DNA of 64,000 bases from Brevundimonas sp. (GCF_965278935.1 NZ_OZ257124.1:1831302-1895301), one strand, 5' to 3'. Shown: positions 27,513-31,325, counted from the first letter of the stretch. The notes: generated by a model not told the origin, from the letters alone. Program-made: numbers and translations.

Positions 27513-27752
27513 TCAGCCCTCGACGTCGGTTTCCGGGCGGTCGTGGCCGTCGGCGCGTTCGGTGACCCAGTCGCCGTTGATGTCGGCGTACTCGATCATC
27601 GCATTGTCGTCCGACACCTTCTGCTCGCGCGCGGCGCGGACGGCGGCGGCCTTGGCGGCGTCGTGGTCGGGGAAGGTCTCGGAGAAGGTGTCGCCGACCT
27701 TGTAGGCCCAGCCGCCGTCGTGTTCGACGATGCGATAGGTGACGTGGCTCAT
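27513..27752 (-). CDS. DUF2188-like small protein
   Basis: 'YRIVEHDGGWAYKV...SETFPDHDAAKAAA..AA.EQ'; GGAG RBS upstream. Confidence 0.8.
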   Translation of the reverse strand: MSHVTYRIVEHDGGWAYKVGDTFSETFPDHDAAKAAAVRAAREQKVSDDNAMIEYADINGDWVTERADGHDRPETDVEG

Positions 27753-27804: not shown

Positions 27805-27832
27805 GCATCCATTCGTGGAGGCGGCGCCGACT
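27805..27832 (+). promoter_or_regulatory. Putative ECF-sigma promoter of module 1 (-35 GCATCC, 17 nt, -10 CGACT)
   Basis: GCATCC-attcgtggaggcggcgc-CGACT about 50 nt upstream of the module's first gene; same geometry as the motif before module 2. Confidence 0.5.
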
Positions 27833-27881
27833 ACCCTGTGAAAGCGCGGGCGACGGGCCGGCGCACAGGGGGTGAAGGACG

Positions 27882-28283
27882 ATGGTCGAACTGTTCCAAG
27901 GTTATTGGTGGCTTCTGTTCCCGCTCGGGTGGTTCATCTTCGGCGGCTTCAACGCGATGGTGAACTACTACCGCCAGAAGAACGTGCTGAAGATCATCAA
28001 GACCTATGCCGACCGGGGCGAGCAGCCGCCGGAGAGCCTGCTGAAGATCGTCGAACAGCCGCTCGACGATCGCCACGAGTACACGCCCTCCACGCGGATG
28101 GACGACGGCAACTGGTTCTCCGTCGTGCTGTTCGGGATTATGGCCGTGGGCTTCGGCTACGCCAGCTGGTCGAACATTTACGGGGCGGGGGACGCCTTCC
28201 TGATCGTGGCCTTCGTGATGGGCGCCCTGGCCGCGGCCTCGCTGGTCTCGAGCCTGCTCGGCCGTCGACGCCGCCGGGACTGA
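27882..28283 (+). CDS. DUF6249-like membrane protein (ECF module 1, gene 1)
   Basis: TM, then 'KTYADRGEQPPESLL', then two TM; same layout as 29864..30259 ('AAIEKGQPLPPE'). Confidence 0.7.
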   Translation: MVELFQGYWWLLFPLGWFIFGGFNAMVNYYRQKNVLKIIKTYADRGEQPPESLLKIVEQPLDDRHEYTPSTRMDDGNWFSVVLFGIMAVGFGYASWSNIYGAGDAFLIVAFVMGALAAASLVSSLLGRRRRRD

Positions 28284-28304
28284 TGTCGGTCCGTGGGGGA
28301 CAGG

Positions 28305-28850
28305 ATGATGCAAGGCTCCTTGGGGGATGCCGAGCTGGTTCGCGCGGCGCGCGCCGGCTCGGACGCCGCCTTTGCGCGGCTGGTCGAGCGGCATCAGGCG
28401 CCGGTGCGCGCCTTTCTGAGACGGCTTCTTGGGCGCAACTGGGACGAGGCGGACGACCTGGCTCAGGACGTGTTCGTGACGGCCTGGGCCTCTCTGGGGC
28501 GGCTGAAGAATCCGGCCGGGCTGCGGTCCTGGCTGTTCGGCATCGCCTGGCGCAAGGGGCAGGACCGGATACGGTCGGGGCTGAGGTCGCAGGCGCGCGA
28601 CCGGTCGTGGCTGGACGAGACGGCGCCGTCCGGGGGGATTTCGGAAGAGGACCGGCTGGCGCTGGCCGATGCGATGGCCGGTCTACCGGCCGATCAGAGG
28701 GCCTGCGTCGCCCTGTGTATGGCCGACGGCTGGTCGCATGCGGAAGCGGCCGAGGCGCTGGGCCTGCCGCTGGGGACCGTGAAGTCCCATGTCACGCGGG
28801 GCAGGGCGCGGTTGCTGGCCGTGCTGACGGGAGGTTCCGATGACGCCTGA
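28305..28850 (+). CDS. ECF RNA polymerase sigma factor (module 1)
   Basis: 'DAELVRAARAGSDAAFARLVERHQ', 'ADDLAQDVF', region 4 'SHAEAAEALGLPLGTVKSHVTRG'. Confidence 0.95.
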   Translation: MMQGSLGDAELVRAARAGSDAAFARLVERHQAPVRAFLRRLLGRNWDEADDLAQDVFVTAWASLGRLKNPAGLRSWLFGIAWRKGQDRIRSGLRSQARDRSWLDETAPSGGISEEDRLALADAMAGLPADQRACVALCMADGWSHAEAAEALGLPLGTVKSHVTRGRARLLAVLTGGSDDA

Positions 28851-29139
28851 GGACCGGCTGAACGCATTCTTCGCCGAGGCGACGCCGCCCGCGCGCGACT
28901 TCGCTTTTCAGGCCGGGGTGGCCGAGCGCGTCGCTCGCCGGCGGGCTTTCGCCACCGTGGGCGCCCTGATCCCCTCGACCATCGCGGCCATCGTCCTGTG
29001 CTGGGCGGTGGGGCCGATGATGGGGCCGGTGGTCGAGGGGCTGGGCCAGACCCTGGCGCCGGCTGCCGCCATCCTGGGCCTGACGGGTCTGGGTGTTGTC
29101 GTGCTGCTGGCTTCGGCGCGGCGGCTGCGGCGGGCCTAG
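28840..29139 (+). CDS. Small two-TM protein, putative anti-sigma factor (module 1, gene 3)
   Basis: Overlaps the sigma stop; soluble 'EDRLNAFFAEATPPARDFAF' N-terminus then two hydrophobic helices. Confidence 0.7.
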   Translation: MTPEDRLNAFFAEATPPARDFAFQAGVAERVARRRAFATVGALIPSTIAAIVLCWAVGPMMGPVVEGLGQTLAPAAAILGLTGLGVVVLLASARRLRRA

Positions 29140-29657
29140 CCTTCGATGGGGCCGCTCAGATAGCCGAGGCACTCCTGCTTCACCTCGGCGAGCGCCGGAT
29201 CTGTGACGGCGGTGACGGCCGCGACGGCTGTGGCGTTCTCAGTTCCGCTCTCGCAGGTCAGTTCGCTGGCGCCGCCCGTGGCCTTCAGGACGGCCAGGAC
29301 GCCCGGCGCGTTCTTCGTCAGGGCCTGGTAGAGCGCGTCGGACAGGCCTTCACCGTACAGTCCGTCGGCGAGGGGCCGGAAGGCCTGGGCCACCTGGAGC
29401 CACTGGCCGTCGCCGGTCGCGACGCCGGCGGTCACCTTGTCGTAGCCTGAAGGATCGGCCGGGCCGGTCAGGACGGCCAGGGTGTGGCCCGCGCCGTCGG
29501 CGGCGATCAGGTTCAGGACGTGGTCGGCGGTCAGGACCTGGGGCCGGGTCTCGGCTGGAACGACTTCGGTCCCGGTCTCGTCGATCGTGTCCGTTCGGGG
29601 CGAACACCCGGTCGCGAGGACGGCGCACAGGGCGAGCGGCAGAAGGCGGATCGACAT
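29136..29657 (-). CDS. Predicted lipoprotein of unknown function
   Basis: ATG 29657 'MSIRLLPLALCAVLATGC' lipobox; helical mature domain with two Cys. Confidence 0.75.
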   Translation of the reverse strand: MSIRLLPLALCAVLATGCSPRTDTIDETGTEVVPAETRPQVLTADHVLNLIAADGAGHTLAVLTGPADPSGYDKVTAGVATGDGQWLQVAQAFRPLADGLYGEGLSDALYQALTKNAPGVLAVLKATGGASELTCESGTENATAVAAVTAVTDPALAEVKQECLGYLSGPIEG

Positions 29658-29780
29658 AACAAACTCCGGGAGCGCAGGGGCGGACGGGAGGCTAGGAGGG
29701 TCTTCGTCGGTGCGCCAGTGGGCCGGGCAGGGGCCCATCGGGGTCAGACGCCGGGTTACGAAGATTTCATGTCGGAAATC

Positions 29781-29808
29781 GCATCTGTTCAGGCTCGCCG
29801 CAGCCTCT
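29781..29808 (+). promoter_or_regulatory. Putative ECF-sigma promoter of module 2 (-35 GCATCT, 17 nt, -10 CCTCT)
   Basis: GCATCT-gttcaggctcgccgcag-CCTCT about 55 nt upstream of ATG 29864. Confidence 0.5.
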
Positions 29809-29863
29809 TGTGATCAGAAGGCTCGGGCATCAGGCTCGGCCGAGATATTCAAAGGACTGAATA

Positions 29864-30259
29864 ATGGACGGCATGGAAGTACTGATCCCCTTGGCTCCCT
29901 TCATCATGGTCATCGCGATCGTGGTCGTTCCCGCCATCCTCAAGAGCAGGGAACGCAAGGAGATGCAGGCGACGTTGCGCGCGGCCATCGAGAAGGGGCA
30001 GCCCCTGCCGCCCGAGGTCATCGAAGCCCTGTCGAAGGACAACATCAAGGCGCCTGCCACTGCCGCCAAGGACATGCGCGTCGGTGTGATCCTGTTGGCT
30101 GTCAGCATCGGCATCGCCCTGTTCGGATCGGCCTTCAACTTCATTGGTGGTTTCGAGGAAACCAAGGCCGTAGCGCCGATCGTCGGCATCGCTGCGATCC
30201 CCGGCATGATCGGTCTGGCCTTCATCGTCCTGAGCTTCTTCAACAAGAACAAGGACTGA
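29864..30259 (+). CDS. DUF6249-family membrane protein (ECF module 2, gene 1)
   Basis: 'SRERKEMQATLRAAIEKGQPLPPE' between an N-terminal TM and two C-terminal TMs. Confidence 0.8.
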   Translation: MDGMEVLIPLAPFIMVIAIVVVPAILKSRERKEMQATLRAAIEKGQPLPPEVIEALSKDNIKAPATAAKDMRVGVILLAVSIGIALFGSAFNFIGGFEETKAVAPIVGIAAIPGMIGLAFIVLSFFNKNKD

Positions 30260-30284
30260 GTCCGGTACGACAGGGGGAACTGTC

Positions 30285-30848
30285 ATGCCCAAGGCCCTGA
30301 TGGACCATCACGACGTCGAACTCGCCGCCCTTGCGGCGGCGGGTGGACGGCGCGAGTTCGGCGAACTGGTCCGCCGCCACGGCTCGGCCGTGCGGTCCCT
30401 GCTGCGACGCATGGGAGCGCAGGGGTCGGAGGCCGACGATGTCGCGCAGGACGCTTTCCTGCAGGCGTTCGAGAAATGCGCAGAGTTCAGAGGCGAAGGC
30501 ACCTTCGCCGCCTGGGTCAAGCGGATCGCCGCGCGCCTCTATCTGAAGCGCAAGGCGAGGGACGCCCGTTACGTCGCCGAGATCGAGCCGGGGGAGGAAG
30601 AGTCCGCTCCCGCACCCGATCAGGCCGGCCTGATCGACCTGGACGAAGCGCTGAAATCGCTCAGCGAAACGGAACGTCTCTGCGTGTCCCTGTGCCATGG
30701 CGCGGGGCTGTCTCATCCCGAGATCGCCGCCGCCATGAATCTGCCGCTTGGAACGGTGAAGTCTCATGTCAAACGTGGTCTGGATAAACTCCGCGCCCGG
30801 CTTTCGCCGGATGTCGGACAGTCGGGGAGGTCGACCCATGTCGGCTGA
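30285..30848 (+). CDS. ECF RNA polymerase sigma factor (module 2)
   Basis: 'EFGELVRRHG', 'ADDVAQDAFL', 'F.GEGTFAAWV.RIA', region 4 'SHPEIAAAMNLPLGTVKSHVKRG'. Confidence 0.95.
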   Translation: MPKALMDHHDVELAALAAAGGRREFGELVRRHGSAVRSLLRRMGAQGSEADDVAQDAFLQAFEKCAEFRGEGTFAAWVKRIAARLYLKRKARDARYVAEIEPGEEESAPAPDQAGLIDLDEALKSLSETERLCVSLCHGAGLSHPEIAAAMNLPLGTVKSHVKRGLDKLRARLSPDVGQSGRSTHVG

Positions 30849-31257
30849 TGAATTCGATCCGATGATCGAGCGGCTGTTCGCCCGCTCGCCCCAGATGGCC
30901 GACGCGAGCCTGTTCGCCGCCGACGTCGAGACGAAACTGCATTCCTCCAGCCGCGTGCGCACCTTGGCCCTGACGGTCGCCGGCCTGATCGGCGGGGTGA
31001 TCGCGGTGAAGGAATCGATGAACTTGAACCTGCATCTGTCAGACGACCGCGCGCCTGTCGCCGGGCGGGTCATCGGCCAGGGTCTTCAGAACGTCAGCCT
31101 GAACGTCCAGGACGCGGTGGGCTCCGGCCTGTCGCAGCTCGGGCTGGCGAACATGACGATCGGGTCGATGGGAGCGATGCAGATGTTCTGGATCGCCGCC
31201 GGAGCCCTGATCGCGGTGGCCGCCGCAGGCGTGGTCCGGCTGTCGCAGGACGTCTGA
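30838..31257 (+). CDS. Small two-TM protein, putative anti-sigma factor (module 2, gene 3)
   Basis: GGGAGG RBS within the sigma end; 'DEFDPMIERLFARSPQMADASLF' then two TM; parallels 28840..29139. Confidence 0.72.
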   Translation: MSADEFDPMIERLFARSPQMADASLFAADVETKLHSSSRVRTLALTVAGLIGGVIAVKESMNLNLHLSDDRAPVAGRVIGQGLQNVSLNVQDAVGSGLSQLGLANMTIGSMGAMQMFWIAAGALIAVAAAGVVRLSQDV

Positions 31258-31325
31258 GTCAGAGCGTCCGGGTCGACGGGATCGATCCGGACGCCTATCT
31301 CTCCGCCGCTGCCAGCGGAGAGCCT

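Follow-up and report, generated by a model that had tools for sequence, protein, structure and literature searches.

Positions 27882 to 31257 of a 64,000-nucleotide stretch of Brevundimonas sp. DNA (GCF_965278935.1, NZ_OZ257124.1:1831302-1895301; hereafter the window) contain two co-directional operons with a common gene order, namely, a protein with three transmembrane segments (3-TM), a sigma factor of extracytoplasmic function (ECF) type, and a protein with two transmembrane segments (2-TM). We call these operons module A (g1A, sigA, and g3A) and module B (g1B, sigB, and g3B) and refer to their first and third genes as gene 1 and gene 3. We propose, with a probability of roughly 0.7, that they are two paralogous, self-activating ECF operons that arose by tandem duplication of a whole operon in an ancestor within the Caulobacterales and that work as outlined below. 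The region carries, in duplicate and with diverged specificity, an ECF module that is widespread and uncharacterised; it represents a variant of a familiar class and not a new class. An earlier note made from the sequence alone (the original prediction) had pointed out that the same three-gene order occurs twice within 3.4 kb, which was confirmed by open reading frame (ORF), TM, and domain calls: Kyte-Doolittle analysis gave three TM segments each in g1A and g1B and two each in g3A and g3B. Pfam models matched SigA (Sigma70_r2, 52.6 bits; Sigma70_r4_2, 61.1 bits) and SigB (Sigma70_r2, 52.5 bits; Sigma70_r4, 52.2 bits), and TIGR02937 scored 75.9 and 78.3 bits, respectively, against a cut-off of 42.9. 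Consisting of sigma-2 and sigma-4 domains only, in the ~170 to 200 amino acids typical of the class, both are ECF (group 4) sigma-70 factors; no NCBIfam equivalog model reached its cut-off for either of them.

Autoregulation is usual among ECF sigma factors, as is restraint by a co-encoded anti-sigma factor (PMC7826278, PMC8103513). In the mechanism that we propose, each operon would consist of a promoter, a DUF6249-type 3-TM protein, an ECF sigma factor, and a DUF5056-like 2-TM protein, the last being made in step with the sigma factor by means of overlapping stop and start codons. The short N-terminal helix-loop-helix of the gene 3 product would hold the sigma factor at the inner membrane, and its release would follow a signal perceived within or at the membrane. 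The freed sigma factor would then transcribe its own operon from the promoter preceding the DUF6249 gene, together with a few other genes; for sigma A, these would include the gene of an exported His-rich alpha/beta hydrolase at another site in the genome. The paralogues would have kept the -35 element and sigma domain 4 while changing sigma domain 2 and the -10 element from an ancestral GCATCT. The DUF6249 protein would sit in the membrane complex as a co-inhibitor or a sensor, this being the least certain step.

The two sigma factors are 39% identical (E value of 3e-28). Pairwise BLASTP of g1A against g1B and of g3A against g3B detected nothing, so that profile comparison was required for these genes. 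The original prediction had named a lack of homology between the hidden Markov model (HMM) profiles of genes 1 and 3 as grounds for giving it up; this comparison was run, and homology was found in both pairs. The g1A and g1B families aligned with hhalign at 94 to 96% probability (E value of ~1e-8) over 115 of ~130 columns, and the g3A and g3B families at 63% with our own alignments and 84% with broader ones (E values of 7e-5 to 7.5e-6), the match covering the N-terminal cytoplasmic segment and TM1 (51 columns in g3B). Four control comparisons of gene 1 with gene 3 gave only 0.1 to 3.4%. In the sigma tree, SigA falls within a clade of DUF6249-linked ECF sigma factors, and the B clade has an SH-aLRT support of 99. 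The sequence and profile comparisons establish homology for each of the three gene pairs, which bears out the old duplication that the original prediction had assumed.

We then scanned loci, taking one genome per species; a g1A relative was found in 80 loci, whose sources were Brevundimonas, Caulobacter, or other Caulobacterales in every case. The six-gene order was present in 72/80 loci, and since the remaining 8 are cut by contig ends, it was found in 72/72 informative ones. The Caulobacter vibrioides DSM 9893 cluster occupies the same position, between arsC and panB. Among 40 relatives, module B was detected in 36 and g1A matches in 13 (E value of ≤0.001); 12 of these relatives had a full-length match, in each case within ~2.5 kb of g1B and including one genome of another family of the order, while the thirteenth match was weak, partial, and located within a long unrelated frame. 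The profile homology of all three pairs, together with the recurrence of the six-gene order, indicates that the arrangement is not due to chance and that the modules are paralogous. Unrelated ECF operons brought together by chance or by independent insertions would fit the blank BLASTP comparisons and an inter-module gap that is a hot spot for insertion, but they would account neither for profile homology in three pairs with clean negative controls nor for the common gene order, overlap geometry, and -35 element, nor for the proximity of g1A to g1B in every relative with a full-length g1A match. We regard this explanation as next to negligible.

We next compared the predicted promoters of the two modules. 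Upstream of g1A orthologues, the strict motif GCATCC-N17-CGACTA with fixed spacing was found in 61/81 distinct regions, and upstream of g1B, 66 of the 72 distinct regions carried GCATC[CT]-N16-GCCTCT, again strict and with fixed spacing. The -35 element GCATCC is thus common to A and B, whereas the -10 element is CGACTA in A and GCCTCT in B. Distant single-copy DUF6249-sigma modules from other Pseudomonadota have GCATCC(AAA)-N16-GCATCT at the same place, indicating that the -10 element of module B differs by one base from the apparent ancestral one and that the -10 element of module A is new. The sigma factors follow the same pattern. Counting the positions that are conserved inside each of the A and B families, 20 are the same and 11 differ between A and B in sigma-2, compared to 22 and 5 in sigma-4; the earlier observation that the sigma factors are alike in region 4.2 and divergent in region 2 therefore held at the level of families. 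As sigma-4 recognises the -35 element and sigma-2 the -10 element (PMC7776599), the conservation of domain 4 and the divergence of domain 2 match the common -35 and the differing -10 elements. Sequence comparison thus suggests that A and B should act as separate, probably insulated sigma channels. The pair would offer a natural example of duplicated ECF sigma factors becoming insulated, with the -35/sigma-4 contact retained and the -10/sigma-2 contact changed.

Genome-wide, the strict A motif (N17, no mismatches) is unique, and the sole other strict match to the B motif overlaps an ORF start codon and is not promoter-like. Promoter pattern searches in the 40 relatives gave more matches than the reversed control. 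In five genomes, a sigma-A-type promoter was located 42 to 49 nucleotides (nt) 5' of the orthologous gene of the exported His-rich alpha/beta hydrolase, the promoter-gene pair of this genome (Table 1) being kept in four other Brevundimonas genomes. We had considered that the regulons were limited to their own operons, an idea that was dropped once the relatives showed this conserved second target of sigma A; its existence implies that DUF6249 is not the sole product under sigma control. The N-terminal His-rich stretch of the hydrolase, HAQHADHGHHHADFE, hints at metal binding. For sigma B, the promoter pattern search brought up no further target in this genome that we found convincing. In relatives, GCATCC-N16-GCCTCT lies 5' of genes encoding exported PF00144 (beta-lactamase family) serine hydrolases (loci L148, L150, and L152) and 5' of genes encoding AraC-family regulators (loci L149, L154, and L156), these sigma-B-type promoters being 22 to 36 nt upstream of the genes.

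The upstream region of g1B contains a further element, TTACGAAGATTTCA (consensus CCTTACGAAnnTTTCA), which was found in 62/72 g1B upstream regions and lies exactly 25 nt 5' of the -35 element in 56 of the 58 regions where both motifs were located. Its sole other copy in the genome (3208500) is upstream of an unrelated gene encoding a 194-amino-acid membrane protein. The element might serve as a site for a regulator or as a second promoter.

Gene 1 belongs to, or derives from, the DUF6249 family. The g1B protein matched Pfam DUF6249 (PF19762) with 47.1 bits against a gathering threshold of 33, and g1A had no Pfam match of its own, although 5/9 members of its family matched DUF6249 weakly (best E value of 8e-4). 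Given these scores and the alignment of the two families, we consider g1B a member of DUF6249 and g1A a divergent homologue lying below the Pfam threshold. In the AlphaFold2 (AF2) model of g1B (predicted local distance difference test score [pLDDT] of 84), TM1 extends as a long cytoplasmic helix that ends in a QPLPPE turn, from which a short helix leads back to a hairpin formed by TM2 and TM3. The most highly conserved residues are located in the cytoplasmic helix/turn hairpin and where TM2 begins. A Foldseek search of the PDB with this model gave nothing significant, the best E value being 0.34, with a TolQ/ExbB-like 3-TM topology at a TM-score of ~0.35. A homologue search with the DUF6249 alignment returned close Caulobacterales relatives only. 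Searching 1.84 billion representatives with the DUF6249 profile yielded 3,522 clusters at 50% identity, and the top 150 matches were nearly all stand-alone proteins of ~120 to 140 amino acids, with no informative domain fusions. The searchable literature mentions DUF6249 only in passing and without a function, in line with the earlier statement that the role of the upstream partner had not been described; a large family found nearly always beside an ECF sigma factor in the sampled genomes is thus functionless in print. In eight loci from Caulobacter and related metagenome-assembled genomes (L077, L079, L082, L088, L090, L097, L101, and L103), an extra short g1A-like ORF (~60 to 170 amino acids, 70 to 85 bits) lies directly 5' of g1A, which suggests that the DUF6249-like gene has undergone a further, partial duplication.

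We then looked for the triad more widely in random samples of Alphaproteobacteria and Pseudomonadota, counting annotated loci with a DUF6249 match. The DUF6249 gene was directly followed by an ECF sigma gene on the same strand in 11/13 alphaproteobacterial and 20/22 pseudomonadotal loci (31/35 overall). The next gene downstream of the sigma gene begins, in the majority of distant loci, at the sigma stop codon, usually with an ATGA overlap, and encodes a protein of ~100 to 130 amino acids in which the motif P..D.GF...VM...RR is followed by two TM segments. Beyond the Pseudomonadota, the neighbourhood of clsB in Bacteroides fragilis combines DUF5056 and DUF6249 proteins and a sigma factor in one conserved cluster, and Porphyromonas gingivalis PG1662 is a DUF6249 protein whose locus number differs by two from that of the ECF sigma factor PG1660. 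PG1660 (RpoE/SigE) has been assigned to the poorly characterised group ECF251 (PMC12596196); BT1817 is likewise named as ECF251. The same three protein families are thus found together in these Bacteroidota clusters (B. fragilis clsB; P. gingivalis PG1660 and PG1661-PG1662). The Bacteroidota clusters differ in that, by locus numbering, the order is sigma factor, small protein, DUF6249, and an ABC/efflux operon follows in P. gingivalis, whereas in the Caulobacterales DUF6249 comes first, the unit is duplicated, and the -10 specificity has diverged. With 3,522 clusters, adjacency in 31/35 loci, and neighbours in Bacteroides, the triad is widespread, and the description of the region as the strongest candidate for a new system did not stand.

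What DUF6249 does in such a module can be approached from its neighbourhood. Because its adjacency to the sigma gene is near-obligate across phyla and it was duplicated together with the module, we favour a role as co-regulator or sensor. Should this prove right, the modules would represent a three-component type of ECF signalling that extends across several phyla. The protein might instead be an output of the sigma factor only, protecting or remodelling the membrane under stress, with gene 3 as the sole regulator. However, regulon outputs seldom stay beside a sigma gene across classes and phyla as DUF6249 does in the Pseudomonadota sample and in Bacteroides, gene 1 was duplicated and retained along with the module, and the most conserved parts of the protein are its cytoplasmic helix and turn. 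A pure output remains the rival to which we give most credit, being possible if rather unlikely, as gene 1 is directly behind the predicted sigma-dependent promoter, few other promoter copies occur in the genome, and DUF6249 has no recognisable sigma-binding domain or significant fold match.

The DUF6249 hairpin itself raises another alternative, namely, that DUF6249 is the real anti-sigma factor and that gene 3 is accessory or stabilising. This hairpin spans ~35 residues, carries the conserved pattern R..T.R...G.(Q)..P, and is predicted to be cytoplasmic by both the positive-inside rule and the AF2 model, and its near-obligate association with a sigma factor would be in keeping with such a function. 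Yet an anti-sigma gene typically occupies position +1 and is coupled to the sigma gene in translation (PMC7826278), which fits gene 3 and not gene 1, and going by the locus numbers of P. gingivalis, a hypothetical protein separates the sigma factor from DUF6249. We consider this very unlikely.

The case for gene 3 as the inhibitor comes from its position and architecture. In both modules the sigma/gene 3 junction is the same: behind a GGAGG, the ATG of gene 3 creates an 11-nt overlap with the sigma stop. The g3A family shares the N-terminal motif P..D..F...V......R, followed by a TM segment; the cytoplasmic part of gene 3 comprises ~35 to 40 amino acids and has no Cys/His motif. In the AF2 model of g3B (pLDDT of 69), a helix at residues 8 to 15 and a loop are followed by a helix that runs from residue 23 into TM1, an ill-defined loop, and TM2. 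The loop between the TM segments comprises ~40 to 50 residues in g3B, with low model confidence, and from a few to ~17 residues in g3A, the figure varying with the placement of the TM boundaries. These loop lengths correct the earlier remark that gene 3 has almost no periplasmic sensor domain, g3B having a loop of ~50 residues. Neither protein had a Pfam match of its own, but DUF5056 (PF16479) was matched by 6/35 members of the g3A family, all below the 28-bit threshold (best, 18.3 bits), and by 6/10 of the distant gene 3 proteins, one of them at 28.9 bits against the cut-off of 28; most of the latter matches span the N-terminal motif and TM1 in a colinear manner. Position +1, translational coupling, and a short conserved cytoplasmic helix pair placed directly on a TM anchor lead us to infer that gene 3 encodes an anti-sigma factor.

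Known systems provide partial parallels. Among anti-sigma factors of class II, CnrY (of cnrYXH) and NepR have a sigma-binding region of about two helices, in contrast to the four helices of class I (PMC8103513). As in CnrY, where the membrane anchor directly follows a short region, the helix-loop-helix of gene 3 occupies ~35 to 40 residues before TM1; the likeness is one of size only, since a profile search of PDB sequences, CnrY and NepR among them, revealed no similarity to gene 3, which furthermore has two TM segments. In Bacillus subtilis, sigma-M is restrained by a membrane complex of YhdL, described as a conventional anti-sigma factor, and YhdK (PMC6827917). Here too an ECF sigma factor, a membrane anti-sigma factor, and a second small membrane protein are co-encoded, and by analogy YhdK may be a functional counterpart of DUF6249. 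There is no sequence relationship and the gene order is sigM-yhdL-yhdK, so that this serves as a working analogy only. A bolder variant would have DUF6249 and gene 3 form a split anti-sigma factor and sensor, in which the DUF6249 cytoplasmic hairpin and the gene 3 helix pair might build a joint sigma-binding surface and the five TM helices, which have hardly any periplasmic domain, sense the state of the membrane itself, giving two orthogonal switches without cross-reaction; this seems unlikely to us. With rpoE-rseABC of Escherichia coli and sigW-rsiW of B. subtilis, the modules share a self-activating bipartite promoter and a co-transcribed +1 membrane inhibitor, both putative here. They differ in having no ZAS/RseA-type domain, an extra conserved gene at position -1, and a -35 element GCATCC that is not of the AAC type. 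Assignment to ECF18/19, prompted by the GCATCC-like -35 element, was set aside, since those groups are RskA regulated, unlike gene 3; the Rhodius et al. text contained no matching motif. The published Caulobacter sigV/cabp system is another ECF locus.

Returning to the proposal of two paralogous operons, each controlled by its gene 3 product, several observations weigh against it. The sigma tree shows a polytomy of A, B, and two other long-branch ECF sigma factors of the genome, and a sister relationship of A and B is thus unsupported. The homology of g3A and g3B depends on ~50 columns at 63 to 84% probability. No recognised anti-sigma domain was found in gene 3 with Pfam and NCBIfam: the class I types zf-HC2/ZAS, RskA, RseA, and FecR, domains of ~80 to 90 amino acids that often carry HxxxCxxC, gave no match at an E value of ≤1 for g3A, g3B, or 57 family members. 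Likewise, gene 3 profiles compared with PDB sequences, CnrY and NepR included, gave chance matches only, and Foldseek with the g3B model identified no fold match in the PDB. Finally, half of the Brevundimonas genomes are without module A, and this absence, along with a stop codon within sigA in one close relative, indicates that module A is a dispensable copy. The presence of two diverged copies in Caulobacteraceae, both of them in one C. vibrioides strain, means that cognate and noncognate partners can be compared within a single tractable organism.

The features of the locus are listed in Table 1. The six co-directional genes and one inverted gene are flanked by an arsC-family gene and panB, and the loci nearest to that of the window are those of Brevundimonas sp. 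DC300-4 and TWP2-3-2.

Table 1. Genes, predicted promoters, and other elements of the two modules (window positions unless a genome position is stated)
Feature	Position	Strand	Description
g1A	27882-28283	+	133 aa (amino acids), 3-TM; divergent DUF6249-like paralogue; opens module A
sigA	28293-28850	+	ECF sigma factor, module A
g3A	28840-29139	+	99 aa, 2-TM, DUF5056-like; putative minimal anti-sigma factor
Lipoprotein gene	29136-29657	-	ORF reaches 29738; signal peptide MSIRLL...ATGC starts at 29657; lipobox LATGC
g1B	29864-30259	+	131 aa, 3-TM, DUF6249; opens module B
sigB	30285-30848	+	ECF sigma factor, module B
g3B	30838-31257	+	139 aa from MSADEF, 2-TM; open frame from 30766; putative anti-sigma factor
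Module A predicted promoter	27805-27833	+	GCATCC-N17-CGACTA, ~48 nt 5' of g1A start codon
Module B predicted promoter	29781-29808	+	GCATCT-N16-GCCTCT, ~55 nt 5' of g1B start codon
Conserved element TTACGAAGATTTCA	29756-29769	+	14 nt, 25 nt 5' of module B -35 element
GC-rich hairpin	31264-31294	+	Directly 3' of g3B; possible operon end, without U tract
His-rich alpha/beta hydrolase gene (L158)	Genome C1 137720-138691	-	Abhydrolase_1, 67.5 bits; exported
Hydrolase sigma-A-type promoter	Genome C1 138740-138768	-	One mismatch; 48 nt upstream of the gene

Comparison with relatives suggests that the real start of sigA is a few codons downstream, near 28305. The hairpin behind g3B has a perfect 8-bp GC stem and lies 30 nt 5' of panB; RNAfold gave -30.1 kcal/mol for 31255-31310. 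A scan of the region for consensus sigma-70 promoters and terminators made no calls, this hairpin included.

The original prediction had described the modules as separated by an inverted lipoprotein gene, which is true of this window and is not a feature of the unit, since a lipoprotein homologue lies between the modules in only 3/74 loci, those of this genome and of its nearest relatives. The modules are only 95 to 153 nt apart in 43 of the 74 loci, where the spacer contains no gene, while the spacers of other loci harbor one of several unrelated inverted genes that vary by lineage. In 24 loci, this inverted gene encodes a signal-peptide protein of ~270 to 300 amino acids, which by eye we would guess to be endonuclease/exonuclease/phosphatase-like, and in 3 loci a small secreted protein. 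The spacer between the modules is thus an insertion hot spot, and the lipoprotein gene, being confined to three loci, is a lineage-specific insert and not part of the system.

In Brevundimonas sp. DC300-4, whose g1A is 92% identical to that of the window, sigA (L025:4412-4972) contains an in-frame stop codon, with DRS*LDE in place of the DRSWLDE of relatives, which may be a sequencing error or else mark the onset of decay in module A. Upstream of module A, a 79-amino-acid ORF on the minus strand (window 27513-27752) matched DUF2188 at the threshold (22.3 versus 22 bits).

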